Part shown: positions 186-20,135 of the stretch, piece after piece
Numbering within the stretch: the stretch's first letter is position 1
Layout of the letters: every line of letters starts with the position of its first letter
Sequence record: PP180005
Direction: 5' to 3' (one strand)
DNA: 53,846 bases
From: Escherichia phage mEp554
Translations under genes and position numbers: made by a program
The notes under the pieces: generated by a model
The model's database searches: none
What the model was told of the DNA's origin: nothing
What the model saw: the letters and a program-made list of their open reading frames with translations, nothing else

Positions 186-1400
186 ATGCTGACGGATACG
201 AAATTACGCGCAATAGCAAACAAGCCATATGACGGCCCGAACGAGATAGCAGATCGCGACGGCTTATCTGCCAGGGTAAGCCCGAAAGGAAAAATAACTT
301 TCCAGTTCCGGTACAGGTTCAACGGTAAGCCAGTGAGGATGAAGATCGGCGATTACGGCAGTATGACATTGAAAGATGCACGCTACGCAGTGGCAGAATA
401 CAAAGAGCTATTAGCGAAGGGGAAGAACCCAACTGTTTCAGTAAAACAAGCGCTAAATATTGAGCGTGGCAAATTAACAATAAGCGCCATTGTGAATGAC
501 TATTTATCCCTGCCGAACGTTATTAAGCTGGTTGCATATAATGACGTCAGGAGCGCGCTTAAGCGCCATGTTGTCGATAAATTCGGTAATTATATTGCCG
601 ATGATGTCAGCACGAAGCAATGGATGGACATATTCGGCGAGATCACTGCGGCGGGACACGCTGTTACGGCTGGCCTGATACTTAAGCGAATGAAGATTGT
701 TGTGAACAGCGCTATCCGGCGCGGGCTAATGACCAGTACAGCGATAAACAATATCAGGGTTATTGATGTAGGCGAAAATTATGCGGTTGGCGAGCGTTAT
801 TTATCATGCGATGAAATAGGTCATTTCTGGCGAACGGTGGATGATTCACAGATCTACCGTCAGAACAAGATAGCATTAAAGCTATTATTGCTCACCGGGT
901 GCAGGGTGGGAGAATTGCAGAAAATGCGGAGGGAACACCTCGACCTGGATAACGGTGTGTGGACCGTTCCGGCAGCGGTGGCAAAAACAAGGAGCGAAAT
1001 CAGGCGGGGATTGTCTGATCTGTCAATAGAAATGCTCAGGGAGGTATTAACCTCCCATGAGTATGATTATGTGTTCCCGCCAGTGATTAACGGCGGCAAC
1101 AGGCCAGTAAACGCATCAGTGATAAAAGTGGCTGCAATCTTCGTGCGTAAAAGGATGGGAGGTAAATCATGGTCCTGTCACGACCTCCGAAGGACGTGCC
1201 GGACGCACCTTTCTGCTATAGGTGTTCCGGTACATATCGCGGAAAAGGTATTAGGCCATTCACTCAGGGGAATACTGGCAGTGTATGACAAATATGATTA
1301 TATTGATGAACAAAAGGAGGCGTTAAATAAATTTGCTGATTACGTCTTATCCCTGGCTGGCGTTAATCCGATCTTATCAAAGAACCGCATCACATCTTGA
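186..1400 (+). CDS. int: Tyrosine site-specific integrase (P4-like family)
   Basis: 404 aa; N-terminal MLTDTKLRA...GKPVRMKIGDYG arm-binding-like domain; C-terminal HDLRRT...HSLRGILAVYDKYDY with R..H..R..Y catalytic pattern. Confidence 0.9.
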   Translation: MLTDTKLRAIANKPYDGPNEIADRDGLSARVSPKGKITFQFRYRFNGKPVRMKIGDYGSMTLKDARYAVAEYKELLAKGKNPTVSVKQALNIERGKLTISAIVNDYLSLPNVIKLVAYNDVRSALKRHVVDKFGNYIADDVSTKQWMDIFGEITAAGHAVTAGLILKRMKIVVNSAIRRGLMTSTAINNIRVIDVGENYAVGERYLSCDEIGHFWRTVDDSQIYRQNKIALKLLLLTGCRVGELQKMRREHLDLDNGVWTVPAAVAKTRSEIRRGLSDLSIEMLREVLTSHEYDYVFPPVINGGNRPVNASVIKVAAIFVRKRMGGKSWSCHDLRRTCRTHLSAIGVPVHIAEKVLGHSLRGILAVYDKYDYIDEQKEALNKFADYVLSLAGVNPILSKNRITS

Positions 1401-2854: not shown

Positions 2855-3048
2855 GATACACCGTTACTATTTTTCCACTGCGCCCGCGCATACATGATCG
2901 CCCGCAAAGAAATTAGGCGCGAGCTTGTCATAAAAGCGCTTTTTAAGTACCTCATATCAACAACAACAGGCTTATCAGGATCGTCGCTGCGCATGTATTC
3001 CGCAATCGTGCTCAAGTCTTCAACTGTCAATTCCAATTCCCTGTTCAT
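2851..3048 (-). CDS. Hypothetical protein
   Basis: Start at MNRELELTV with AAGGTGG SD. Confidence 0.45.
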   Translation of the reverse strand: MNRELELTVEDLSTIAEYMRSDDPDKPVVVDMRYLKSAFMTSSRLISLRAIMYARAQWKNSNGVS

Positions 3049-3058
3049 GATCGCCACC

Positions 3059-3265
3059 TTACACAATCCGCATTGTGTTTCGTAATTCACCGCGCAACGC
3101 CTGTAAAGCGTAACGAATCGACACAAAAGCCCGGTTAAATTTTACGTGCCTGTATTTGCGCATTAGTGGCGGCGTATAAACCATCGCGCCGCAAGGATCG
3201 CATGGGAATTTAAAGTGAGATTCGTCAATAAACGTTTCAACTGAATAAAAAATTACCCGTCTCAT
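3059..3265 (-). CDS. Hypothetical protein
   Basis: ORF with ATGA start/stop overlap to upstream gene. Confidence 0.4.
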   Translation of the reverse strand: MRRVIFYSVETFIDESHFKFPCDPCGAMVYTPPLMRKYRHVKFNRAFVSIRYALQALRGELRNTMRIV

Positions 3266-3819
3266 AATTCCAACCCCGTTTCGCCGTTAAGTTTTTCGAT
3301 CTCAAATATTGGTTTATCCGGTAGCAGGCCGTTATTTTTCCGGTATTCGTTCAGGCGTCTGTCAAAGTCAAAAGCCAAATCATTAGCGTGACCGAAGCGC
3401 CCAGGTTTAAACAATGAGTAAAAATTTACCCCGTGTCGGTTAGGGTCAACGCAAAGCGTTTCATCAATAACCATTAAACGCAGAGTACGAGATAGATAAT
3501 TCCACGGAATACCCGTTTCCGCGCTAATGTCGCGCATACGCTTTTTAACGCTGTAGTCACCAAATAACGCAGCGACGCGCTCGCGACGTTCAGCATATAA
3601 CTGTTTAATACGATAACCAAGCAGTCGGCGGCGGCGTCCAAAACATGTATACACGCGCTCGACGATGCCGTTTTTTATTAAGTGTTTAATTGTCTCAGGC
3701 ATGATTCCATCCTTATCATACCCGACCAATAATCCTGTTTTCTGGCGTAACTGGTGCATTGTTGCGATGCCATCAAGTTCAAGGATATTGATAATTTTTG
3801 TTTCAATTTCAGCGCTCAT
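3262..3819 (-). CDS. Hypothetical protein (185 aa)
   Basis: ORF with GAGG SD; downstream of helicase in the same operon. Confidence 0.55.
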   Translation of the reverse strand: MSAEIETKIINILELDGIATMHQLRQKTGLLVGYDKDGIMPETIKHLIKNGIVERVYTCFGRRRRLLGYRIKQLYAERRERVAALFGDYSVKKRMRDISAETGIPWNYLSRTLRLMVIDETLCVDPNRHGVNFYSLFKPGRFGHANDLAFDFDRRLNEYRKNNGLLPDKPIFEIEKLNGETGLEL

Positions 3820-3895
3820 TTTTAGCCTCGTTTAAAACGCGATAACAGCCACCAGAAAGCGGTAAACTTTCCGGCAAGCTGTTTGCTAATATTGA

Positions 3896-5311
3896 TTAAA
3901 AAGATGCGTTATTCTGATTGTTTCGTTGGTTAAAACGGCTTGTGCGATGATTCATTGACTGAATGCACGCTGCGGCTGCGCGCGCCTGGTCGCATGGCAA
4001 GATATTACCGTTGTCATCAAACCGCTGGTAAACAGTTCCAGACTTACCATGACGGTTTTTTGACACAATAATTTCCATATATTCGCGGGCAACAGACTGT
4101 TCATCGTAATATCCATCTCGGTAAACCATGATTATCCTGTCGGCATCTTGCTCAAGGTTGCCCGAATCACGAAGATCAGAATTGTTAGGTCGCTTGTTCG
4201 GTCGTTCCTCAACACGGCGGGACAATTGCGCCAGCGCCAACACTGGTACACGCAATTCTTTAGCCATCATCTTTAACGACCACGACAATTGCCCTACGGC
4301 GAGATCATGACGTTCGGCCTTAGCCAGCTTCATTAACCCGATATAGTCAATCATTACCATACCCAGGTTCGGGTGATCCTGCTTCATCCGTTCCGTTGTT
4401 GCGCGTATTTCCTCAACCGTTAACTGCGACGCGTCAACGATCCACACATCAAGATTAGCAAGTGCGCTCATACCCTGGCCGACATGCGCCCACCCCTCAT
4501 CATCAAGTTTTACAGGATTGCGCAGGCAGTCGGTTGATAAATTACCAGCGCCCGCGATAGCGCGCTCAGTCATCTGATCGAGTGACATTTCAAGCGTGAA
4601 GAACAAAACGCCAACCCGCTGATCCTTGCTGCCAGGGTAAGGTCGCTCAGCGGCAGCGCGGGCAATTGTCAGCGCCAACGCAGATTTACCAGACCCAGGG
4701 CGTCCGGCGAGAAGTACCAAATCAGTAGCGTTAATGCCGCCCAACATTTCGTCGAGTGGTTCTATACCTGTTTTGATGTTGTCAGAGTTGACACCGCATT
4801 CCATGCGCTTGCTTAAAACGTCAGTATATTCCTGTACCGCATCGCGCAACAGAACAGGAATGATCTTGTCTTTCGTTACCTTTAATTTTGAATACCGGGA
4901 ATCAAAATCTTTCATCGTCTCTTTGACGACCTCAAGCGTCCCAGTCTCCAGTTTGTAGCGCATATCGTCGATTAGTTCCAACATCTGCCGCCGCTGGTGC
5001 TCTTCACGTAGTAACTGTGCGTATCCCTTCAGGTTGGCAGCAGACGGGCACGAACGCGCCGTTTGCATTAGCGGTACGAAATTTTCATTACCAATCTCAT
5101 CACCGACCAGCAACGCATCTATGAGATTTCTGTTTCTGGCTTGTGCCCGGATAACTTCAAACGCACGTTTATAGAGCGGGATCGTGAACACTTCAGGATC
5201 AAGTGTGGCGAGAACATCTTGCGCGTTAGGAGTTAGGCCACCTAACAGCAGCCCGCCGATAACTGACGCCTCACGTTCCTGCCGTAGTGAGTTTATTTGC
5301 TCAGTTACCAT
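3896..5311 (-). CDS. Replicative DNA helicase, DnaB family
   Basis: 471 aa; Walker A GRPGSGKSALALTIA; DnaB-like N-terminal domain; GGAGG SD. Confidence 0.9.
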   Translation of the reverse strand: MVTEQINSLRQEREASVIGGLLLGGLTPNAQDVLATLDPEVFTIPLYKRAFEVIRAQARNRNLIDALLVGDEIGNENFVPLMQTARSCPSAANLKGYAQLLREEHQRRQMLELIDDMRYKLETGTLEVVKETMKDFDSRYSKLKVTKDKIIPVLLRDAVQEYTDVLSKRMECGVNSDNIKTGIEPLDEMLGGINATDLVLLAGRPGSGKSALALTIARAAAERPYPGSKDQRVGVLFFTLEMSLDQMTERAIAGAGNLSTDCLRNPVKLDDEGWAHVGQGMSALANLDVWIVDASQLTVEEIRATTERMKQDHPNLGMVMIDYIGLMKLAKAERHDLAVGQLSWSLKMMAKELRVPVLALAQLSRRVEERPNKRPNNSDLRDSGNLEQDADRIIMVYRDGYYDEQSVAREYMEIIVSKNRHGKSGTVYQRFDDNGNILPCDQARAAAACIQSMNHRTSRFNQRNNQNNASF

Positions 5312-5329
5312 TATGTTATTTCCTCCGGT

Positions 5330-6448
5330 TTACAAAATGGAAAATTCAGGGTAATAAACAAAGCGCCCGATCTCACCATGATCCGGGCTGTAAATTATTA
5401 CCGCCGCCAGGCGACGCGACCGCCAGCCGCCATTAGTTGAATAGGCATCTTTACCAGCTAACGTGCCGTGATACTCAACAACGCCCAACGATGATTCAAT
5501 CATCCGTTGATGATGCCAGTGCCCGCAGTGGGCGTAAACCGCCGCAGACTTGCCGAAATCCTCGCGCCAGTCAGCTACGCAAGCAGCCAATAAGTTTTCC
5601 GGCTTTTTGATAGTGTGCCCGTGGTGGTAAGCAAGGAATGTTTTCCCGTACTGCGTGTGGTGGACGATAGTAGGTGACACATCAACCGTCACGCGCGGTT
5701 CATCTTCGTAAAAAGCCGCCAGCGCCGCACGTAGCCAAATCATACCAGACTGGTCATGATTCCCTGATAACACCTGGATTTCCACATCCTTATGATTTAG
5801 CAACATCTTTCCTACAGCCCGCCGGACAGACCGGATCGCCACATAAACAAGTTTTGCGTAGCGCGAATCGCAATCAAGAACGTGATTGCTTGATGGCGTC
5901 ACTGGTAACAATCCGTCAGTGTGAAGCAGGTCGCCCCCGAGAAGAAGAACCGCTTTTTCACTCATAGGGGCAGCGCCAACTGCGTAGTCAAAGAAGTCAT
6001 TTAACACGCGTTCAGCGATCCCAGTGTCGTAGCTCTCGCCGCATTCAGCTTTATGAGCAAGCGCCCCGATGTGCAGGTCAAACACCGGATAAAGTGCCAG
6101 GCTTTTTTGAAAATCAATTTCAGGCACTGGCACGGCCTCCGCGCGTGGTATTTCTTCCGTGAATGCGTCGCGGGCCGCTTCCATTAACTGTTCCATTTCG
6201 TCGCGGTCACGGGCTGTTTTAATCCAGCGCATGATCACATTGCCATCCTTATCGACTAGCAACGACTCGCCATTAACACCAAAACCAGGAGCGCGGCGCG
6301 TTGATAATAAACCGCGTTTTGCCAGTTTTGCTCCCAGGCGTTCGACATTGCGTTTAGACATGCCGTACTTTTCAGCGATCTGTTTGTACGTTAATCCGTT
6401 GTTATATTCAGCGATCAATTGCTCATCACTGATTTTTCTTTGCGACAT
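5330..6448 (-). CDS. HTH domain protein fused to calcineurin-like metallophosphoesterase
   Basis: Phosphoesterase motifs DLH, GDLLHTDG, GNHD, HHGH, GHWHH; N-terminal LTYKQIAEKYGMSKRNVERL HTH; start at SD-preceded MSQRK. Confidence 0.75.
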   Translation of the reverse strand: MSQRKISDEQLIAEYNNGLTYKQIAEKYGMSKRNVERLGAKLAKRGLLSTRRAPGFGVNGESLLVDKDGNVIMRWIKTARDRDEMEQLMEAARDAFTEEIPRAEAVPVPEIDFQKSLALYPVFDLHIGALAHKAECGESYDTGIAERVLNDFFDYAVGAAPMSEKAVLLLGGDLLHTDGLLPVTPSSNHVLDCDSRYAKLVYVAIRSVRRAVGKMLLNHKDVEIQVLSGNHDQSGMIWLRAALAAFYEDEPRVTVDVSPTIVHHTQYGKTFLAYHHGHTIKKPENLLAACVADWREDFGKSAAVYAHCGHWHHQRMIESSLGVVEYHGTLAGKDAYSTNGGWRSRRLAAVIIYSPDHGEIGRFVYYPEFSIL

Positions 6449-6481
6449 AATGTTAATCCCTCCAGTTAACAAAATGTATAC

Positions 6482-7225
6482 CTATTTGCACGCAAAAAGT
6501 TCAGACACCCAAAGTTGACCCTTAGCAGTAAATAGTGATTGTACATAACCAGCATCCGAACATTTTACCACTCCATAGCCTTTGTCTAAAAACCACTGTT
6601 TGAACATGCGCCCGCCGCGCCTAATTCGCGTATCGTACACGTCAACCTGTTCAAGTTTTTTGTTGAGTTGCGTAGCAGTCATACCCAAAGGCTTGGCAAC
6701 CTGTGTAGCGTTGCGATACTGTTTGTTTCTCACAATCGCATCACAGACAGCCGCTTTTGGCGCTAATTCCTTGTTTTCCAGCTCCAGCCGTTCAGCTTCT
6801 TTCTGTGCTAATAGTTTTTGTTCCACCTCATCAGCCCATGCGCGAGCCGCAGCAACCGGGTCAGTGAAATCCGGCAAAGCTGGTTTAAAACCGTAATGTC
6901 CATTTTCACGCAAAGCAGGGAGAACATCCTCGCACACCCAATCCTGGAAGCGCTCAGCCGATTCTATTTTTGATCGCATCACAAGGCGGTAAACATCTGA
7001 TTCATGGATTAGCGTTACGCCTTGCGGGATTGGAGCGAATCCCAAATGTTCCATTTCAGAACATTTTATTTTTATCAATGACTTACAGTGATCTTTGATA
7101 GCTTTTTGTGGCGTAGCGTAACCAAGCGCCCGCGCCACATCCATTGCAACAAAAGCAGGTTTACCATCATAAATTACAGCAGTGATTTTATTGTCATCAA
7201 AATTAAAGCACATCAACTCAGACAT
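6482..7225 (-). CDS. Antirepressor-like protein (Bro-N N-terminal, KilA-C-like C-terminal domain)
   Basis: N-terminal FNFDDNKITAVIYDGKPAFVAMDVARALGY (Bro-N-like); C-terminal QVAKPLGMTATQLNKKLEQ (KilA-C-like); GGAG SD. Confidence 0.65.
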   Translation of the reverse strand: MSELMCFNFDDNKITAVIYDGKPAFVAMDVARALGYATPQKAIKDHCKSLIKIKCSEMEHLGFAPIPQGVTLIHESDVYRLVMRSKIESAERFQDWVCEDVLPALRENGHYGFKPALPDFTDPVAAARAWADEVEQKLLAQKEAERLELENKELAPKAAVCDAIVRNKQYRNATQVAKPLGMTATQLNKKLEQVDVYDTRIRRGGRMFKQWFLDKGYGVVKCSDAGYVQSLFTAKGQLWVSELFACK

Positions 7226-7357
7226 TGTAATTTCTCCGTAAAACGCGCTACAACGCAAAAATCCCACCGCGTAACCCGATTGCACAGGTTGCAGTGTTTT
7301 ATTGCGTCAGAGGCGCTTTCAGATGGCTAATTTTTGATTTACAGACTGATATGAATG

Positions 7358-7459
7358 TTATGGATTGACTAGAAGGAACAAACCGCCGAACAAAGCGACG
7401 TTAACAGCGATTGCAGCAGCGATGGCAAAAGCCAGGGCGAAAACGTGTTTACCGTCCAT
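7358..7459 (-). CDS. Single-helix hydrophobic mini-protein (33 aa)
   Basis: MDGKHVFALAFAIAAAIAVNVALFGGLFLLVNP; GAGAGGA SD. Confidence 0.35.
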   Translation of the reverse strand: MDGKHVFALAFAIAAAIAVNVALFGGLFLLVNP

Positions 7460-7593
7460 TTTCAAAATCCTCTCTAAAACGCTCTATAACGAGCTAAATA
7501 GCTAAAGGTATGCAAGTGTAGCACCAAATGCTTTTTAGCTCGCTGGTGAGCTTGTTTGGTTGGTTATTTTTGATTTTTGCGGATCGTGGTTGG

Positions 7594-8580
7594 TCAAAGA
7601 GCGCCTGCGCGTGTATCACGTAGCGTTTTTGGTTTAAGCAGGAAATCAAGTGTCGCAGTGAAGCCATCGCCGAAGTAAAAATCTGAAGCATTGTTTTTGA
7701 ACGTTTCAAAGTAGGCGACAAAGCCGTTAATGCTTTTGTCTTTCAGGTAGTCAGTGAACGCGTAGATCTTGCGTTCAAGATCCCGATCCAGTTCGGCAGG
7801 TGGCAACAGGCCATCAAACGTGCTGTTAAATGCCTCCACTACGTCTGCAGCGTTTGCAGTGGCTGACAGGTTGCGCCATTTTTCAGCATCAGCCAGATAC
7901 CCATCAAATTTAGTTACCCGGCAAATGTTAATAGGCTTAGGTGTTCCGCCACGACTACGCCATTGCGTTAAAGCCCACTCAATCACTAATGTGATCTCAT
8001 CCTCTGTGTACGCTTTACGTGTTTTTGTTTCTGTCAGTAGTTCTATGAATGGCTTTGCATCACGACATTTGCATCCTGCCTTGTCGTTATAGAAGGCCAG
8101 GCAACGCAATGCCGCTTCGTTTACTCCATCCTGATTGACCTGTTTTTCTTCTGGGGGGATACAAGGGGGTATATCTTTAATGTTCTCTTTACTGGTTATA
8201 TATGACTGATTAGGGTGTCTCTCTGACACTACCCCCGGTGTCACTGTGACACTACCCCGGTGTCTCTCTGACACTACCCCCGGTGTCTCTCTGACACTAC
8301 CCAGCAATGATGGTAGGACTATCACATAGAAGTTACTCGTTTGCTCCTTTCCTCCGATTAAGTATCTTGGTTGTTTAATCAATAGACCTTTCTCACAAAG
8401 GGCGTCGACGGCCCTCATTGCCGTACTCTTACTGATCTCGCATTCCTTTGCTATGTGATGATAAGAAGGGTAACACTCGCCGTTATCATTAGCGTTATCA
8501 GCTAACTTCAACAGCACTAGTTTGTGCATTGGGTTGCCGACCTCAGTATGGAAGACTTCTACCATTAGCCGCATACTCAT
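7594..8580 (-). CDS. Replication initiation protein (N-terminal winged-helix domain; iterons inside gene)
   Basis: N-terminal HKLVLLKLADNANDNGECYPSYHHIAKECEIS; four 22-23 bp iterons within coding sequence; sits upstream of helicase; start uncertain (8529-8595). Confidence 0.7.
   Translation of the reverse strand: MSMRLMVEVFHTEVGNPMHKLVLLKLADNANDNGECYPSYHHIAKECEISKSTAMRAVDALCEKGLLIKQPRYLIGGKEQTSNFYVIVLPSLLGSVRETPGVVSERHRGSVTVTPGVVSERHPNQSYITSKENIKDIPPCIPPEEKQVNQDGVNEAALRCLAFYNDKAGCKCRDAKPFIELLTETKTRKAYTEDEITLVIEWALTQWRSRGGTPKPINICRVTKFDGYLADAEKWRNLSATANAADVVEAFNSTFDGLLPPAELDRDLERKIYAFTDYLKDKSINGFVAYFETFKNNASDFYFGDGFTATLDFLLKPKTLRDTRAGAL
8214..8303. repeat. Origin iterons: four tandem 22-23 bp repeats GGTGTCTCTCTGACACTACCCCC, each with internal GTGTC/GACAC inverted repeat; AT-rich stretch at 8171-8213
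   Basis: Directly visible tandem repeats in rep gene, encoding SVRETPGVVSERH repeats; lambda O/ori-like arrangement. Confidence 0.7.
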
Positions 8581-8601
8581 AAGCATTAACCTCATGACGG
8601 A

Positions 8602-8847
8602 CTAAAACATTAACTGATAAACACAGAAGAAACCTGGCAGCTGGCTGATTAGGCCGCTTCTTTTCAGTTGATGCAGTGCAGAGATAGTATCGCGTAACGA
8701 AATTTCGCACATTTCCGCGATCTCTTCCGGCGTTACTTCGCTTTTGCCGTTGCATCCGGCCTTTGTTGCCAGTGCAATTAAGATGAGTTTTTGCACATGA
8801 TCATTGTTATTCAGGCGAATATCAAAAGCCTTGCGAACGTAATACAT
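8602..8847 (-). CDS. Small winged-helix DNA-binding protein, paralog of the replication initiator N-terminal domain; first gene of leftward operon (Cro position)
   Basis: VQKLILIALATKAGCNGKSEVTPEEIAEMCEIS aligns with rep N-terminus; GGAG SD before MYYVRK. Confidence 0.5.
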   Translation of the reverse strand: MYYVRKAFDIRLNNNDHVQKLILIALATKAGCNGKSEVTPEEIAEMCEISLRDTISALHQLKRSGLISQLPGFFCVYQLMF

Positions 8848-9112
8848 GTTTCTTTCTCCTATGGTTAGAGTGAACGCGCTGGCGGGTATCAAATTAGCAT
8901 TAGATAGCAGTGACTGACCGCTGAACAGATCCCGCCGTTGCGTGATATTTGTTTTTCGCTTCGCAGCGACACCGGATTTTTAAAGAGCTTTTAAGGTATG
9001 TGCCTTTTGTGCTTTCCCTTATCTTTTTCCTTGCATCATTGCAAGTTCGGCTTTACCTTGTCTGTAAGTTTACAGAATGGCGTTAACAGATCAAGGATTG
9101 AAAATTACATTT

Positions 9113-9128
9113 TGTGACTTGCATCAAA
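9113..9128. promoter_or_regulatory. Palindrome TGTGACTTGCATCAAA in the divergent immunity intergenic region; candidate operator or CRP-like site
   Basis: Near-match to TGTGA-N6-TCACA; adjacent CATTTTGT motif; second TTGCATCATTGCAA palindrome at 9032-9045. Confidence 0.25.
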
Positions 9129-9153
9129 TTTTTTTAGGTTATAGGGTAGCGAC

Positions 9154-9801
9154 ATGAAAACAAAATGGTATGACTTAGCAAAACAACTCATGCGGGCGCA
9201 GGGTATGAGTCAGGATTCATTGGCAGATCTCATGGGGATCACAAAAGGCGGCTTGTCACACTGGCTTAACGGTCGCCGCGAGCCAAATCTTGAAGACATT
9301 GCGCGGATCATGCGGGCGCTTGGGCGTCGGCAGTTCACTGTCACACATGATGGAATGGTCATTGATGATTCTGTTTCTAACACGTTGCCGGGAGCGCCTC
9401 CTCGTGATTTAGGCAGTTACCCGGTTGTTGACTGGAAGGATGTAGCAAACAATATGGAAGACATAAGCAGATCAACATTGCCACACGTTACGACTAGCGT
9501 TATTTGTTCAGATGATAGTTACTGGCTGGTTGCTAAAGGCGAATCAATGAACGCGCCGCAAGGATTGAGTATACCAGCGGGGACGATGATACTTGTCGAT
9601 CCGCACGCGCCAGCTATTGACGGAAAACTGGTTATAGCCCAACTGGAGGAGGGGCAGATACCGACGTTTAAACAGTTGATTATTGATGGAGGCAGAAAAC
9701 TTTTGCGTTCACTGAATCCGTTGTATCCGCCGATCCCTATGAATCCAGAATCTAAAATCATAGGCGTGGTAGTGGATGCGAAGATCGTAAACCTGCCATA
9801 A
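9154..9801 (+). CDS. CI-like repressor, HTH_XRE plus LexA-like S24 peptidase domain
   Basis: N-terminal GMSQDSLADLMGITKGGLSHWLNGRR HTH; C-terminal GESMNAP (Ser) and TFKQL (Lys) S24 motifs; divergent from leftward operon. Confidence 0.85.
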   Translation: MKTKWYDLAKQLMRAQGMSQDSLADLMGITKGGLSHWLNGRREPNLEDIARIMRALGRRQFTVTHDGMVIDDSVSNTLPGAPPRDLGSYPVVDWKDVANNMEDISRSTLPHVTTSVICSDDSYWLVAKGESMNAPQGLSIPAGTMILVDPHAPAIDGKLVIAQLEEGQIPTFKQLIIDGGRKLLRSLNPLYPPIPMNPESKIIGVVVDAKIVNLP

Positions 9802-9808
9802 AACATTA

Positions 9809-9832
9809 GCCGCCTGGTGGCGGCTTTTCTTT
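9809..9832 (+). terminator. Rho-independent terminator after repressor gene
   Basis: GCCGCC-TGGT-GGCGGC hairpin followed by TTTTCTTT. Confidence 0.65.
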
Positions 9833-9925
9833 GCCATAAAAACACCAAAACGTAAACAGAAAACGTTATTTATTATTTAAATATCAATGACATATAAAAT
9901 ATTTTAAAAAAGTATACAAAATGGA

Positions 9926-9954
9926 TTGACTAGGTGTTTTACGGGGCGTATATT
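9926..9954 (+). promoter_or_regulatory. Sigma70-like promoter for rightward early operon
   Basis: TTGACT, 17-nt spacer, TATATT; TATACAAAATGG motif immediately upstream. Confidence 0.5.
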
Positions 9955-10088
9955 GCGAGTCAAAGGAGGAAGCAAGGCAGGGAAAGAAGGTTACTTGCTC
10001 TTTAACAATCTGGTCAGCCGCTGGAAGTGCGGCAATTAACGAAGATGATTTTTATTAAGTATCATCAAGGATATAAGGAGATCAGATC

Positions 10089-10379
10089 ATGACAGTTACA
10101 ATCATGTATGGCAAATGTGATAGCAAAATAAACGCCAGGGAACGCAGAAGAATAAAAAGAGAAAACGAAAGAAAATCATCACCTGCAATTAATAAAACGG
10201 ACAATGTGGATAAAGCCATTCGCTTTGCAAACGATGAAAGATGCAAACCCAATGGCATTAAAGAACGTCGCAAAGGAGCAGTAAAATGGTATACGGAAAA
10301 TGAAAGCGGCAACTACTACCACGCAACGCAACCACGCCAACTAGGGGAGAAACCACTGGATAAAGTCCGTTACCATTAA
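10089..10379 (+). CDS. Hypothetical basic protein
   Basis: AGGAG SD; lysine/arginine-rich. Confidence 0.55.
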   Translation: MTVTIMYGKCDSKINARERRRIKRENERKSSPAINKTDNVDKAIRFANDERCKPNGIKERRKGAVKWYTENESGNYYHATQPRQLGEKPLDKVRYH

Positions 10380-10409: not shown

Positions 10410-10532
10410 ATGGTTATTAAGGCGCTTCAATTCAAACTTGCGGTAGCGGAAATGCTTCACGATGCCGAAATGTGGAGCGCCGCAAATAAAGCCTTGTACA
10501 TAGTGTTAACAGCTAAGGAGATCAAAGAGTGA
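10410..10532 (+). CDS. Hypothetical small protein (40 aa)
   Basis: GGAGGTGA SD; stop overlaps erf start. Confidence 0.35.
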   Translation: MVIKALQFKLAVAEMLHDAEMWSAANKALYIVLTAKEIKE

Positions 10533-11170
10533 AAACAGAATTACACAAAAAGCTGTGGACGATTCAACAAACGCTGAACGCACCGAAAAATCAGCGCAAT
10601 AATTTCGGTGGGTACAATTACAGGTCGGCGGAGGATATTTTGGAGGCGGTTAAGCCACTTCTTCAAAATATAACGCTGACTGTTAGCGATGAAATCGTCC
10701 TGATCGGCAATCGCTATTATGTGAAAGCCACTGCAACACTAAGCGACGGAGAAGATGAAATTGCGGTAACTGCTTACGCCAGGGAAGAAGAAAGCAAGAA
10801 GGGAATGGACGCAAGCCAGTTAACTGGCGCGACATCAAGTTATGCGCGTAAATACGCGTTGAACGGCTTGTTCTGCATTGATGACGCAAAAGATCCTGAT
10901 ACTGATGCTTACGCGAAACAGACAAATCAACAGCCGCGACAGCAGAAAAACACGCCGAAACAACAACCACAGCAGCAGAAAGCGCCGCCAAATCCTGATG
11001 AAGTATTAGCACGTTTCTGTGATGCGGCAGCGAAAGCGCCGGACGCTAACAAGTTGCGCGAGATATTCGGGAAGTGCTGGAAGATACTTCCTAAAGATTC
11101 AGAGCAGCAACAGAAAGCTAAAGACGTTTATGATATTCGCTTAAAAGAGCTTAACGGGGAGATCGGTTAA
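10529..11170 (+). CDS. erf: Erf-family single-strand annealing protein
   Basis: GGYNYRSAEDILEAVKPLL motif typical of ERF family; GTG start with AGGAG SD. Confidence 0.8.
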   Translation: MKTELHKKLWTIQQTLNAPKNQRNNFGGYNYRSAEDILEAVKPLLQNITLTVSDEIVLIGNRYYVKATATLSDGEDEIAVTAYAREEESKKGMDASQLTGATSSYARKYALNGLFCIDDAKDPDTDAYAKQTNQQPRQQKNTPKQQPQQQKAPPNPDEVLARFCDAAAKAPDANKLREIFGKCWKILPKDSEQQQKAKDVYDIRLKELNGEIG

Positions 11171-11637
11171 TGAGCTTAAATTCAATCACGCTGGGCGGTA
11201 ATATCGGAAATGATATGGAAGTTCGCTACACGCAAAACGGTAAAGCTATTGGTAGCTTTCCGTTAGCTGTAACGAATGGCTACGGTGATAATAAGCGGAC
11301 AATGTGGATCACTTGCCTGGTATTTGGCGAGCGTGCGGAAAAATTAGCTCCACATATTCGTAAGGGTGGAAAAATAGTGGTAAGCGGTCGCCTGGATGTT
11401 CGGCAATATGACCGGAACGACGGCACGAAGGGGACGGCGGTAGAAGTGGCGGTCAATGAATTTGAGTTCATGGCTGTTAACCAGCAAGGCCAACAGCAAG
11501 GCCAGCAGCAGGGCCAGCGCCAGCCGCCGCAACAGAATCAAGGCGGCGGCAATCAACCTCCGATGGATTTTGACGATGATATCCCATTTAGTTGCGTGGG
11601 GTTACAATATGGAAAACATAGAATCTACGCGTTGTAA
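11170..11637 (+). CDS. ssb: Single-stranded DNA-binding protein with 15-aa extension after the acidic tip
   Basis: OB-fold SSB N-terminus; Gln/Gly-rich linker; DFDDDIPF tip at 11566-11589 followed by SCVGLQYGKHRIYAL before stop. Confidence 0.85.
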   Translation: MSLNSITLGGNIGNDMEVRYTQNGKAIGSFPLAVTNGYGDNKRTMWITCLVFGERAEKLAPHIRKGGKIVVSGRLDVRQYDRNDGTKGTAVEVAVNEFEFMAVNQQGQQQGQQQGQRQPPQQNQGGGNQPPMDFDDDIPFSCVGLQYGKHRIYAL

Positions 11638-12139
11638 ACGGTGTATAAAATGTGGGGCGTTATTGCCCCTTTCTTCTTTCTATAAACATAAATTAATGGC
11701 TGACGGTCACTCAAATAAATGTAAGGAGTGTACGAAGCAAGATGTAAAAGATAATCGCAAGAAAAATATAGAACGCTACAGGGAATACGACAGAGAGCGC
11801 AACCAATCAGGGGATAGGAAAGCGTTAAGACGTCGTTATCGTCAAAGCGATGAAGGTAAGGAGGCGCATAAAAGGGCTTGCGACAAGTGGGTTAAAAATA
11901 ACGAGAAGAAGCGCCACGCCGAAATAATGGTAGGTAACGCTATCCGCGATGGCAAATTAATTAAACAACCTTGCGAAGTATGCGGCAGAGAGGACCGCGT
12001 ACACGCGCACCATTGCGATTATGATAAGCCGCTCGATGTTATGTGGCTTTGCCCGATATGCCATCGAGCGTGGCACAACGAACACGGTGAAGGAGCTAAT
12101 GCACACGACGAGGTATTAAATGGTGAGCGAATATCTTAA
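11609..12139 (+). CDS. HNH endonuclease (candidate homing endonuclease)
   Basis: CEVCGREDRVHAHHCDYDKPLDVMWLCPICHRAWH HNH motif; N-terminal CKRCIKCG zinc-finger; starts inside SSB 3' end. Confidence 0.8.
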   Translation: MENIESTRCKRCIKCGALLPLSSFYKHKLMADGHSNKCKECTKQDVKDNRKKNIERYREYDRERNQSGDRKALRRRYRQSDEGKEAHKRACDKWVKNNEKKRHAEIMVGNAIRDGKLIKQPCEVCGREDRVHAHHCDYDKPLDVMWLCPICHRAWHNEHGEGANAHDEVLNGERIS

Positions 12140-15581: not shown

Positions 15582-16121
15582 ATGAAAAATGATTACGGCG
15601 GCAGCCATACGCCGAAAGAAATAAAAGACCTATGGCAAACGCCAAAACCAGTTTTTAGAGGAATGGATCGAGAATTCGAATTCGTCGCTGATGTGGCGGC
15701 AAACAAGGCAAACGCGCTAGTTCCGCGATATATAACCGAAGAAATGGACACGTTGCATTATCCGTGGGGAGCGGTGGCAATGCCTGGTGAATATGTCTGG
15801 ATGAATCCGCCATACTCAAACCCTGGTCCATTCGTTGATAAAGCGGCGCTCGAACATCAACTGAATCACATTGGTTGCGTAATGCTGTTGCCCGCTGACA
15901 TTTCTGTTAGCTGGTTCATGAACGGCGCGGAGACGGCAAACGAATGCAGATTAATAACGCGCGGGCGGCTGGCGTTTATCAATGCTGCGACTGGTAAGCC
16001 AGTGAGCGGAAACAATAAAGGGAGCTTGTTTTTGATCTGGCATCCACGATGCAGACATGAATGTATTTTTACACACATAACACGTAAAGAGCTATACGCA
16101 AGAGGTGCAGATAATGACTAG
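15582..16121 (+). CDS. Phage Dam-family DNA N6-adenine methyltransferase
   Basis: DLWQTPKPVF...YVWMNPPYS (NPPY catalytic motif) and overall length/pattern of phage Dam family. Confidence 0.8.
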   Translation: MKNDYGGSHTPKEIKDLWQTPKPVFRGMDREFEFVADVAANKANALVPRYITEEMDTLHYPWGAVAMPGEYVWMNPPYSNPGPFVDKAALEHQLNHIGCVMLLPADISVSWFMNGAETANECRLITRGRLAFINAATGKPVSGNNKGSLFLIWHPRCRHECIFTHITRKELYARGADND

Positions 16122-16611: not shown

Positions 16612-17095
16612 CAGGTTATTGGCCTGCGTTTATGTCGCCGTTTTCGTGATCATCAACCTTATTGTTAACCATTGCGGCCCGTGGGTAATTCCGATCACTA
16701 CGGTAGCCGCTGTGTGTGTCAATATGATGATCCGTGACTTCCTGTTATATGACGGCGGCTTGAAATGGTCGGCTACAACATGCGCCGCCGCTGGCGCAAT
16801 CACGGTGCTAATAAATTACGATGCAGGAATGGTAGCAATAGCGTCATTCGTCGCGGTTGTTTCCGGTGCGCTTATATCTGGCGGTGTTTACCGGGTTTTG
16901 CCTGGTGATTTCGATTCGAAACGCTGGCCTGCAAATATAGCTTCAGCCATCGGGGATGCGTTAATTTTCCCGACGCTATCGTTTATGGCGTTTATGCCGG
17001 AAATATCAGCGATGCAATTCATCTCAAAAATGGCAGCGGTGACGGTGATCACTATCATCATGCGCCGCTATTTCACGTTTGAGGGCAAAAAATGA
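16583..17095 (+). CDS. Multi-pass membrane protein, possibly DUF165/YhhQ-like transporter family (uncertain)
   Basis: At least four hydrophobic segments; ASFVAVVSGALISGGVYRV and SKRW motifs recalled as YhhQ-like; start uncertain. Confidence 0.45.
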   Translation: MTQMKKVTIDRLLACVYVAVFVIINLIVNHCGPWVIPITTVAAVCVNMMIRDFLLYDGGLKWSATTCAAAGAITVLINYDAGMVAIASFVAVVSGALISGGVYRVLPGDFDSKRWPANIASAIGDALIFPTLSFMAFMPEISAMQFISKMAAVTVITIIMRRYFTFEGKK

Positions 17096-17874
17096 GCAAG
17101 GCTAAACACTGGTTATATAATTGGCTAAGAAACTGGGTTGTGTGGTCGCTGTACGACGGCAGCGGGTACGCCGTTAAAGACTGGGCGGAAGCGGGATATA
17201 AGTGCTATTGCTTCAACTATGACGGCGCAAATCACGGCGATTATGAAGGCGTTAAAATCATTCATCCGAATATTGAATACGTTAACGTATGGATTGACAG
17301 TCACTTCCTGGTGATGTTCTCGCCTGACTTGTCAGTTTACCCAGAGCCTGACATTATCCTGGGCTTCCCGCCGTGCGACGATCTCGCCGTGTCTGGCGCT
17401 CGCTGGTTCGCTGACAAACGAAAAAAAGATCCTGACTTCCAGGTGAAGGCGGCGAATAGCGCAAAACTGGTAGAAAAACTGGCGGATATGCACAACGTGC
17501 CGTGGATGGTGGAAAATCCGGTGGGGGCACTGTCAACGCTATGGCGTAAACCGGATTTTATCTTCAATCCTTGCGCTTACGGTGGCTACCTGCCGGAAGA
17601 TGACAAACATCCTGCTTTCCCGGATGTTTACCCGGCGCGCGACGCGTATACAAAGAAAACTTGTATTTGGTGCGGTAACGGATTTAAGCAGCCGCTTTTC
17701 AGACCTGTAGATCTTAACTCTGGTGATAACCCGGGGTGGGCGAAAACAGGAGGCAGGACGAAACGAACAAAGATGATCCGCTCACTAACGCCGCGCGGCT
17801 TTGCCCGTGCTGTATTCCTGGCTAACGACCGGGCCATCAATCGTACTACGCTTAACCGTGTTTTGCCGGACTGA
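17092..17874 (+). CDS. DNA cytosine-5 methyltransferase-like protein (compact, 260 aa)
   Basis: Motif I-like LYDGSGY, motif IV-like GFPPC, motif VI ENPVG, motif IX/X-like RSLTPRGFARAV. Confidence 0.65.
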   Translation: MSKAKHWLYNWLRNWVVWSLYDGSGYAVKDWAEAGYKCYCFNYDGANHGDYEGVKIIHPNIEYVNVWIDSHFLVMFSPDLSVYPEPDIILGFPPCDDLAVSGARWFADKRKKDPDFQVKAANSAKLVEKLADMHNVPWMVENPVGALSTLWRKPDFIFNPCAYGGYLPEDDKHPAFPDVYPARDAYTKKTCIWCGNGFKQPLFRPVDLNSGDNPGWAKTGGRTKRTKMIRSLTPRGFARAVFLANDRAINRTTLNRVLPD

Positions 17875-18033: not shown

Positions 18034-18210
18034 ATGCCTTTTGATAATTACCAATGGCATGACGACTATGAACGAGAGAGCGTTATGCGTGCAATGTGCA
18101 ATGTATGCAGCACGAAGAGAGGAGGCTGTAACGAGTGCAACGAATGCTTAGAACATTGGCTAAGGGCCGGACACGCCGAAAGGCTGAACGAAACAGAGAA
18201 TCAAAAATAA
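18034..18210 (+). CDS. Hypothetical Cys-rich small protein (58 aa)
   Basis: AGGAGAG SD; CNVCSTKRGGCNECNEC. Confidence 0.4.
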   Translation: MPFDNYQWHDDYERESVMRAMCNVCSTKRGGCNECNECLEHWLRAGHAERLNETENQK

Positions 18211-18224
18211 TCGGGGTGGTTTTT

Positions 18225-18830
18225 ATGCAAAACCCTAAAAAACCCATAAGACGCCGTTGCAAATGCTGCGGCGTTTTTTTTGAGCCTAAATACCATAATC
18301 AAACGTGGTGCAGTGATGAGTGTCTGGAAGAGCTGAAATTTGATCAGCTATGCCGCGACCGTGAGAAGGCTATGAAGGCTATGGAGCGGAAGAAACGCCG
18401 TGATAGCCAGCGTGAAGAACGCAACCGGAAGCGTAAACAGTTAAATCCGCGTAGTTATTGGATCAAACAAGTTCAAAATGTATTTAACGCCTATATTCGA
18501 GAACGTGACGCGCGCTTGCCGTGTATATCTTGCGGGACTTACTACGGTGAGCAATGCGGGTGGGATGCAGGCCATTACAGGACGGTAGCCGCCGCCGGAC
18601 ACCTTCGCTTCAACGAGGATAATTGCCATAAGCAATGTAGGCACTGCAACCAGACACTAGACGGCAACATCGGAGGGTATCGCCCGGCACTGATTCGAAA
18701 AATTGGCCTCGCCAGGGTGGTAGCTCTGGAGAACAACAACGAAACTCACAAATGGACGATTGCAGAATGTAAGGAGCTAATAAACATCTATCAGGCTAAA
18801 TTGGACGCCTTAAGGAGAAAGGCAGCATGA
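18225..18830 (+). CDS. ninG: NinG-family protein
   Basis: RRRCKCCGVFFEP...YWIKQVQNVFNAYIRERDARLPCISCG...WDAGHYR...LRFNEDNCHKQC closely resembles lambda NinG. Confidence 0.85.
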   Translation: MQNPKKPIRRRCKCCGVFFEPKYHNQTWCSDECLEELKFDQLCRDREKAMKAMERKKRRDSQREERNRKRKQLNPRSYWIKQVQNVFNAYIRERDARLPCISCGTYYGEQCGWDAGHYRTVAAAGHLRFNEDNCHKQCRHCNQTLDGNIGGYRPALIRKIGLARVVALENNNETHKWTIAECKELINIYQAKLDALRRKAA

Positions 18831-19234: not shown

Positions 19235-19413
19235 AAAACGAAATTAAAGATCTGCAAATAGATATTCAGCGCGATGAGCATGATTTAGCTACAGTCCGAC
19301 AAATCCAGGCTTTCCACATGAGAGAACTGCTTGCGCTGAAAGAGCTTGAAAGAAAGTTGGTCCAATCAATATCTGATCGTAAACGTCTGGTTGCTCGTTA
19401 CGGGGGCAAATAA
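19231..19413 (+). CDS. Hypothetical protein
   Basis: ORF in operon. Confidence 0.45.
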   Translation: MKNEIKDLQIDIQRDEHDLATVRQIQAFHMRELLALKELERKLVQSISDRKRLVARYGGK

Positions 19414-20135
19414 TGAATCTGGAATCAATTCTTAAATTCCACTTCCCAAAATCACCGCGTTTGTCAGATGAAAGCCGGGGCACGTCCCCGGATGCGCTTA
19501 ATACTACTGATGCACTAACTGCCGCAGGTATGGCGCAATCGCGCGTAGAGCTTGGTTATAGCGCTTTTTTGGGGAAGATGGAACTATCACAAGCCGAAAA
19601 GCATAAGGCCGTAGTTTTGCTTATAGAGCGTTTAAGGGCTATGGCAAAAGACTATGAATACGTTATGGAACTGGACGAGGCCAAACGCAATGATCTCATT
19701 ATTCTTGTTGCCGTTTTCGCATTTCGGGATTATTGCCAGAGTGCCGCGACGGAAAAAACTTGTATGGAGTGCGGCGGATATAAATTTACGTTTGACGAAT
19801 ACGGGGAAAAACACCTTTGTAAAAAATGCAAGGGGCATGGGACAGTTCGCAATCATTGTAAACAATGCAAGGGCCGTGGCGAAGTACCGGATAAAGCAGC
19901 CAGCGAAGCGGCGGAAATGCCAGTGTTCAAAACGTGCCAGCGCTGCGGCGGGCGCGGGTACTCGCGTTTCCCTGTAGATCTTGTCCGGCAGGCGGTTAAT
20001 CAGCTTGTTTTTCCGGTAAGCCGATCAACATGGTGGAAGAAATACCGGGCTTTCTATGAAGACGCCATTGCCGAATTGTTCAAAGAAGAGGCGCGGGCTG
20101 ACAACGAAATTAAACGAGTGACGCGGGGTGAATGA
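19413..20135 (+). CDS. Q-like late antiterminator (phage 82 type) with four CxxCxGxG zinc-finger repeats
   Basis: N-terminal MNLESILKFHF...SRGTSPDAL recalled as Q82-family; CMECGGYK, CKKCKGHG, CKQCKGRG, CQRCGGRG. Confidence 0.6.
   Translation: MNLESILKFHFPKSPRLSDESRGTSPDALNTTDALTAAGMAQSRVELGYSAFLGKMELSQAEKHKAVVLLIERLRAMAKDYEYVMELDEAKRNDLIILVAVFAFRDYCQSAATEKTCMECGGYKFTFDEYGEKHLCKKCKGHGTVRNHCKQCKGRGEVPDKAASEAAEMPVFKTCQRCGGRGYSRFPVDLVRQAVNQLVFPVSRSTWWKKYRAFYEDAIAELFKEEARADNEIKRVTRGE

Follow-up and report, generated by a model that had tools for sequence, protein, structure and literature searches.

A 53,846-nucleotide stretch of DNA from Escherichia phage mEp554 (sequence record PP180005), which we call the window, encodes on its minus strand, at 5330..6448, a 372-aa protein in which an N-terminal helix-turn-helix (HTH) domain precedes a metallophosphoesterase (MPE) domain. 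We judge this protein to be a DNA nuclease, at a probability of about 0.55, with metal-dependent cleavage of DNA as its likeliest activity. An earlier note on the same DNA had suggested a nuclease or phosphatase recruited to replication or recombination; the choice most likely resolves towards a nuclease-like enzyme, which the neighbours of the predicted fold, membership in the protein family PHROG 704 and DNA-metabolism contexts in other phages favour, and the phosphatase half of the suggestion is not upheld. The gene and its architecture, the conserved active site, the predicted fold, the family and the genomic contexts are shown, whereas DNA as the substrate and the biological role are our inference, and about any specific role of the protein we are clearly less confident than about nuclease activity.

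The gene begins with an ATG at 6448 and ends with a TAA stop at 5330-5332. A GGAGGG ribosome-binding site lies at 6458..6463 on the same strand, 9 nt upstream of the ATG, and an alternative TTG start at 6472 falls upstream of this element. The position of the Shine-Dalgarno sequence therefore favours ATG 6448 over the TTG, and homologues begin at the ATG position. Given the family profile matches, the gene is real, far beyond chance; the open reading frame (ORF), its N-terminal HTH and every MPE motif quoted in the earlier note are present. By megablast of positions 3000-9000, the window matches the mEp021 group (mEpimmI) of temperate coliphages, with mEp044 at 93% identity over 98% of the query and mEp515, mEp010, mEp021 and mEp013 at 90-92%. 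Near-identical MPE proteins occur in mEp044 (96.8%) and in E. coli assemblies (97% and 96%).

Domain organization and active site

The N-terminal domain (aa 1-45; 6314..6448) comprises helices at residues 8-16, 21-28 and 32-44 and is an HTH of the sigma-70 region 4 or LuxR-GerE kind. In the protein itself the HTH is sub-threshold in Pfam (E about 2e-3), and the three N-terminal helices of the AlphaFold2 (AF2) model, residues 8-44, support the assignment. Relatives match Pfam HTH models more clearly, with Sigma70_r4_2 found in 13 of 55 and GerE in 5 of 55; E values reach 1e-6 at the lowest, with 4.5e-6 the best value given beside these two counts. The HTH region also has a weak PDB profile match to GerE (1fse). 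After a flexible stretch comes a linker module (aa 56-97; 6158..6283), modelled as a β-hairpin and a long helix, in which residues G69 and W75 are at least 90% conserved. The module has two strands only and hence is no OB fold.

The catalytic domain (aa 114-372; 5333..6109) adopts the β-sandwich of the MPE fold in the predicted structure. The mean pLDDT of the AF2 model was 92.3 with a diverse 55-sequence alignment and 74.6 with close homologues only. The same alignment of 55 relatives, at 29-71% identity to the mEp554 protein, was used to assess conservation. The five ordered motifs of the superfamily, DxH, GDxx(D/H), GNH(D/E), H and GHxH, are all found, as D124xH126, G172D173xxH176, G229NHD232, H276 and G309HxH312. 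Motif I (D124-L-H126; 6071..6079, like all these elements on the minus strand) has an invariant D124 and an H126 that is at least 90% conserved. Motif II (G172-D-L-L-H-T-D-G179; 5912..5935) is of the GDxxH type, with D173 invariant and G172, H176 and D178 at least 90% conserved. N230 and H231 are invariant in motif III (G229-N-H-D232; 5753..5764), where D232 reaches at least 90%; H276 and G277 are invariant in motif IV (H275-H-G-H278; 5615..5626), as are G309 and H312 in motif V (G309-H-W-H-H313; 5510..5524), which also holds H310 at 90% or more. Outside the five motifs, G128 and R252 are invariant as well. Because the metal ligands and catalytic residues in all five motifs show invariance, or conservation of at least 90%, at such divergence, the protein is probably an active enzyme.

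A loop characteristic of the family follows motif II (aa 176-197, HTDGLLPVTPSSNHVLDCDSRY; 5858..5923), with T184 invariant and L191, D192, D194 and R196 at least 90% conserved. In a PDB profile search it had no sequence-level counterpart among solved MPEs, and we presume that it serves in binding the substrate.

The family has diverged too far for the Pfam MPE models, which hampers annotation by sequence and leaves the fold uncontradicted. The mEp554 protein has no match to Pfam Metallophos even at E<=10, and does not reach the gathering score of PF00149 or PF12850. Among its relatives, weak matches to Metallophos occur in 12 of 55 (best E 5.8e-5) and to Metallophos_2 in 9 of 55 (best E 4.1e-4). 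The MPE assignment thus rests on the motifs, on these weak matches and on the predicted fold. PDB sequence (phmmer) and profile searches gave no significant MPE match, and an NCBIfam scan nothing meaningful. The sole MPE chains to surface in the PDB profile search were nucleases, a Pseudomonas putida protein entered as 'Nuclease MPE' and Thermotoga maritima SbcD/Mre11, all at E about 1. The fold neighbours of the model are likewise nucleases, not phosphatases of the lambda-PP or Pnkp type, and the family profile scored 0.0032 with SbcD, 0.0022 with T5 A1 and 0.086 with lambda PP.

A large phage family

The protein falls within a large, catalogued phage family and is unexceptional there. It matches PHROG 704 over its full length (E 5.2e-139, 464.7 bits), with residues 4-368 aligned to positions 2-387 of the 390 in the profile; the PHROG name, 'DNA repair exonuclease', rests on annotation only. 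Members share the architecture of an HTH plus an MPE domain and a length of about 370-420 aa. By tblastn, homologues occur in 2031 of 50,697 phage records (about 4%), with 80% or more of the query covered in 1951 of them; judged by phage name, the hosts are most often Escherichia, Klebsiella, Salmonella and Vibrio. A search of 1.84 billion representative proteins with the family profile returned 5349 clusters, formed at the 50% identity level, at E<=1e-3 and 1327 at E<=1e-30, most of them of 370-420 aa and aligned over nearly the whole profile. An intact chromosomal copy was found in 35 of 5426 complete E. coli genomes, nearly always labelled 'hypothetical protein', and a profile search with the close alignment across a species-representative genome collection gave two loci only, in a Nitratidesulfovibrio assembly and a Bacillota metagenome-assembled genome (MAG). 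The phage-record counts and the few bacterial loci suggest that the family is mainly phage-borne. We considered a defence gene and rejected this assignment, as the protein matches no PADLOC defence model at E<=0.01 and the family is a core gene of lytic phages.

Gene names within the family are inconsistent and include hypothetical protein, Rrf2 regulator, DNA polymerase II small subunit, DNA repair exonuclease, phosphoesterase and murein ligase. The labels 'putative phosphoesterase' or 'metallophosphoesterase' are found in T1-like phages, Webervirus, Dhillonvirus HK578 (gp59), Jerseyvirus and PP99 (orf28). The family is a persistent gene in 508 of 522 Drexlerviridae (PMC13164509), whose proteins are 55-66% identical to that of mEp554. 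The paper on the mEp phages does not discuss the gene.

In phages outside the mEp group, the gene mostly lies beside lysis, nucleotide-metabolism or tail genes, whereas in mEp554 it sits in the replication operon of a temperate phage, beside a DnaB helicase gene. It adjoins holin and endolysin genes in the T1-like JLBYU26, lies between tail genes in a Jerseyvirus, and comes behind lysis genes in HK578, where it is at the end of the genome, and in phages of Vibrio, Yersinia and Rhizobium. In Salmonella phage ST44, a 71%-identical homologue occupies a T1-like replication and recombination cluster (locus 3955-10145) in the order DUF3987 helicase, 150-aa ORF, MPE gene, Zn-ribbon primase, SNF2-type helicase, DUF3799 exonuclease, ERF and SSB. 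The family thus sits among replication genes outside the mEp group too. In an N4-like Ruegeria phage, the gene adjoins thymidylate synthase and lies near a dCMP deaminase gene. Together with the gene orders of PP99, Yersinia phage vB_YenM_25 and Drexlerviridae given below, these DNA-metabolism surroundings count in favour of a DNA nuclease.

Probable nuclease activity, known counterparts and competing explanations

We propose that the protein may be an active two-metal phosphodiesterase belonging to the nuclease branch of the calcineurin-like superfamily (Mre11/SbcD/PolD-DP1-like), in which the MPE domain would be tethered to an N-terminal HTH DNA-binding domain and would act with neither a Rad50/SbcC partner nor a capping domain. 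As an accessory gene it would probably be co-transcribed with a P22-type replication module from a repressor-controlled early operon. Its product could degrade or process host or phage DNA, and so serve recombination-dependent replication and nucleotide supply in lytic growth.

Two phage proteins provide the nearest functional parallels. T5 A1 is both required for the degradation of host DNA in vivo and enough by itself to cause it, and is described by its authors as structurally similar to nucleases of double-strand-break repair and to proofreading exonucleases (bioRxiv 10.64898/2026.04.02.716235). Several A1 homologues carry N-terminal HTH Pfam domains, paralleling the architecture seen here. 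A1 differs in being a pre-early protein of 556 aa, assigned to phrog_1745, with a middle region of roughly 240 aa that the mEp554 protein lacks. The second parallel, Gp48 of mycobacteriophage A10ZJ24, is a phosphodiesterase and DNase in vitro, is expressed early, and damages the host genome on expression (PMC12287305). Like the mEp554 protein, Gp48 is a stand-alone phage MPE; the positions reported for its motifs (D10, D41 and H175) set it apart as a shorter protein that starts at motif I, apparently without an N-terminal HTH. Gp48 is an MPE of mycobacteriophage cluster A, which includes temperate phages.

Among cellular enzymes, the modelled catalytic domain appears to be an Mre11/SbcD-like nuclease domain. 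Structure comparison aligned 185-189 residues with Mre11/SbcD chains that are 319-362 residues long; there is no significant sequence similarity (E about 1). The capping domain of Mre11/SbcD is absent, as the mEp554 chain ends with the MPE core at residue 372, and an N-terminal HTH is present instead. No Rad50/SbcC gene was found in the window, in which every ORF longer than 450 aa encodes a helicase, terminase, portal or tail protein; lacking a partner gene, a Rad50-dependent Mre11 complex was rejected. The small subunit of PolD, DP1, is a 3'-5' proofreading exonuclease. Compared with DP1, the mEp554 protein shows 12% identity over the aligned residues, and it differs from DP1 and the eukaryotic polymerase B subunits in having neither their OB fold, in place of which the hairpin and helix precede the MPE core, nor, among the scanned ORFs, a partner polymerase.

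Several observations weigh against a DNA nuclease. The kinship with A1 is weakly supported by profile comparison: hhalign of the MPE domains gave a sub-threshold probability of 48% (E 1.9e-4), and an SbcD control scored about the same as A1 in the hidden Markov model (HMM) searches. A full-length hhalign of the family with A1 aligned only the HTH regions, at a probability of 25%; under relaxed settings the comparison of the MPE domains lined up motifs III-V and the C-terminal segment; and reciprocal hmmsearch gave best per-sequence E values of 2e-7 to 3e-6, uncorrected for 120-270 targets. The mEp554 protein has no match to phrog_1745, nor A1 to phrog_704. In view of the equal SbcD control, and with homology established at the superfamily level at most, we regard A1 by analogy as the closest studied functional counterpart, not as a demonstrated close relative or sister family. 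Further points against are that Mre11-like end processing is not simply transferable to a protein without capping domain or Rad50/SbcC partner, that the contexts of the gene are heterogeneous and include lysis- and tail-adjacent positions, and that the literature yielded genome-annotation mentions only, with no biochemical or genetic data found on any PHROG 704 member. In a temperate phage, moreover, an unrestrained host-DNA-degrading nuclease expressed early is hard to reconcile with lysogeny, and since early genes precede the lysis-lysogeny decision, the role may be more restricted or different here. Lastly, since T1-like relatives have a RecE-like DUF3799 exonuclease as well as the MPE gene, the MPE protein is not simply the exonuclease that Erf lacks as a partner.

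The putative nuclease could plausibly process DNA ends for recombination-dependent replication, because the window phage carries an Erf-type single-strand annealing protein (SSAP; 10529-11170, plus strand), SSB (11170-11637, plus), NinB (2423-2854, minus) and NinG/Rap (18135-18830, plus), and no exonuclease of the lambda Exo or RecE type was found among the scanned window ORFs, with ORFs below about 110 aa and one of 220 aa unassigned. The latter, at 1570-2232, has no Pfam, PHROG or PADLOC match. More speculatively, PHROG 704 and T5 A1 might represent two lineages within a single ancient clade of Mre11-like DNases, HTH-tethered and independent of Rad50, for DNA takeover and recycling. In the mEp021 group, such an enzyme would have been wired into the replication operon, as an accessory factor and not a bulk shredder of host DNA, making an origin-proximal or end-processing cut that feeds recombination-dependent replication through Erf, SSB and NinB. 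We consider this extended scheme rather unlikely.

Other substrates have to be weighed against DNA. The protein could instead be a phosphodiesterase acting on small nucleotides, such as cyclic or linear oligonucleotide immune signals, Ap4A-like dinucleotides or nucleotide-pool intermediates, for nucleotide metabolism or counter-defence; we regard this as unlikely, though a possibility to be kept in mind.

Gene order in some relatives points to another activity, that of an end-healing phosphoesterase removing 2',3'-cyclic or 3'-phosphates from broken RNA or DNA together with polynucleotide kinase (PNK) and ligase. Bacterial Pnkp, which has an MPE domain, would be an analogue. In Yersinia phage vB_YenM_25, the MPE gene directly precedes a gene for a PNK-type 3'-phosphatase/5'-kinase, followed by a dNMP kinase gene. 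PP99 has the order endonuclease VII, MPE gene, phosphatase, dNMP kinase and DNA ligase, the ligase being three genes downstream of the MPE gene, with polymerase and 5'-3' exonuclease genes upstream. PNK also commonly follows in Drexlerviridae, where in genomes without an intervening SH3 gene PNK and dNMP kinase genes are what most often comes after the exonuclease gene (PMC13164509). However, the PNK neighbours already provide a 3'-phosphatase, no PNK or ligase was found among the scanned ORFs of the window phage, and the nuclease-like fold neighbours are not of the Pnkp type. We therefore think end healing improbable.

A Ser/Thr or dual-specificity protein phosphatase acting on host or phage phosphoproteins, as lambda NinI of the PPP family does within the same superfamily, would share the five-motif active site, and lambdoid phages do carry such an enzyme in the early region. 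The earlier note had named clear assignment to a standard Ser/Thr phosphatase family as the outcome that would overturn its proposal, and no such assignment emerged: the GDxxDRG signature of motif II is absent, overall similarity to the PPP fold is lacking, and NinI is the most distant comparator by structure and profile. With motif II different and nucleases as fold neighbours, a lambda-type protein phosphatase was rejected as very improbable.

A P22-type replication module with an accessory gene

The MPE gene lies, as the earlier note described, between an antirepressor and a DnaB-like helicase, both recognized by Pfam. The helicase gene (3896..5311, minus strand; DnaB_C 1e-75, DnaB N-terminal domain 5e-12) starts 18 nt after the MPE stop, and the Bro-N/KilAC antirepressor-like accessory gene (6482..7285, minus; Bro-N 2e-21, ANT 2e-10) ends 33 nt before the MPE start. 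Next comes an O-like or gp18-like replication initiator (7594..8595, minus) with an HTH_36 domain (Pfam, 2e-14) and matches to the replication-initiation families phrog_428, phrog_8540 and phrog_345. Beyond it is a gene for a 96-aa HTH protein (8602..8892, minus) that matches phrog_4617, 'replication initiation protein', at E 1.9e-9. This small protein resembles a free-standing copy of the N-terminal HTH_36 domain of the initiator and may be either a fragment of the initiator or a regulator like Cro. A cI-like repressor gene lies at 9154-9801 (plus), and the early region is read away from it on the minus strand. A promoter and terminator consensus scan of 3200-9300 gave nothing above shuffled expectation, and the 33- and 18-nt gaps and signal-free junctions are weakly consistent with co-transcription.

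The note had expected a helicase loader at the MPE position and had seen no lambda P-like or DnaC-like gene. The absence holds among the ORFs scanned; the expectation does not. In tblastn searches, the best relatives of the helicase outside the mEp021 group were P22-type gp12 proteins (57% identity over 96% of the query), and the match runs into the adjacent initiator gene ('12 | 18' in ST104, 'p | o' in BTP1) with nothing between. P22 gp12, an analogue of DnaB, acts with no partner other than gp18. Judged by sequence, the module is of the two-gene type, initiator (P22 gene 18) plus helicase (gene 12), split here by two inserted accessory genes. The MPE gene is an accessory insertion, and no loader is missing.

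That the protein itself is a helicase loader or replisome scaffold, an MPE-fold protein bridging initiator and phage DnaB in the manner of archaeal and eukaryotic polymerase B subunits, is the least probable of the explanations we considered: P22-type relatives do without a loader, most of the roughly 2000 phages with the family have it apart from any DnaB gene, mEp021 has an HNH gene inserted between MPE gene and helicase, strict conservation of catalytic residues points to an enzyme and not a scaffold, and neither an OB fold nor, among the scanned ORFs, a polymerase gene was found. Polymerase B subunits have typically lost their catalytic MPE residues. The protein also has no Pfam, NCBIfam or PHROG match to the loader families lambda P, DnaC/DnaI, DciA and SPP1 G39P, and its coupling to the replicative helicase is confined to the mEp group and is not conserved across the family.

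The surroundings of the gene vary within the group. Between initiator and MPE gene, mEp554 has the Bro-N/KilAC antirepressor and mEp021 a 495-aa zinc-ribbon protein; small ORFs occupy this place in mEp044 and in MagusPhagus. The HNH homing endonuclease gene of mEp021 lies at 5349-5852 of its locus; a homing or HNH endonuclease is annotated under the corresponding matches in mEp010 and mEp515, and there is none in the window, mEp044 or mEp013. The gene immediately after the helicase (3262-3819, minus) encodes a 185-aa MarR/Ren-like protein with only weak matches, to a MarR-family regulator PHROG (2e-10) and a Ren-like exclusion protein (4e-4); the protein is conserved at this place across the mEp group and in one E. 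coli prophage. The helicase and MPE genes (4001-6000) have a GC content of 0.50, compared with 0.44-0.46 in the flanking 2-kb bins. This difference and the 55-66% identity to T1-like core proteins suggest gene exchange between temperate and virulent phage lineages.

Elsewhere in the window, an integrase gene is annotated at 186-1400 (plus). An endonuclease ORF at 11456-12139 (plus), with a match to phrog_2340 and weaker endonuclease VII/HNH matches, overlaps the 3' end of SSB as listed; its start is probably downstream of the listed ATG, as the PHROG matches only from residue 57 onwards. Genes for two DNA methyltransferases and for a Q-like antiterminator (phrog_127, E 3e-79) lie at 15582-16121, 17092-17874 and 19413-20135 (plus). 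The phage group with this Q-like antiterminator has been called Nus-dependent but non-lambdoid in the literature.

For the locus, the practical result is corrective: a P22-type initiator-plus-helicase module carries an accessory insertion, and the placement of the MPE gene between the two genes of that module in a temperate phage is the only local peculiarity. For the family, which occurs in about 4% of deposited phage genomes, is persistent in Drexlerviridae and spans more than 5000 clusters at 50% identity, and for which we found no experimental work, a firm assignment as an HTH-tethered, stand-alone Mre11-like enzyme would give thousands of genes a testable function. It would also link them to T5 A1 and Gp48, stand-alone phage MPEs that act as host-genome DNases.

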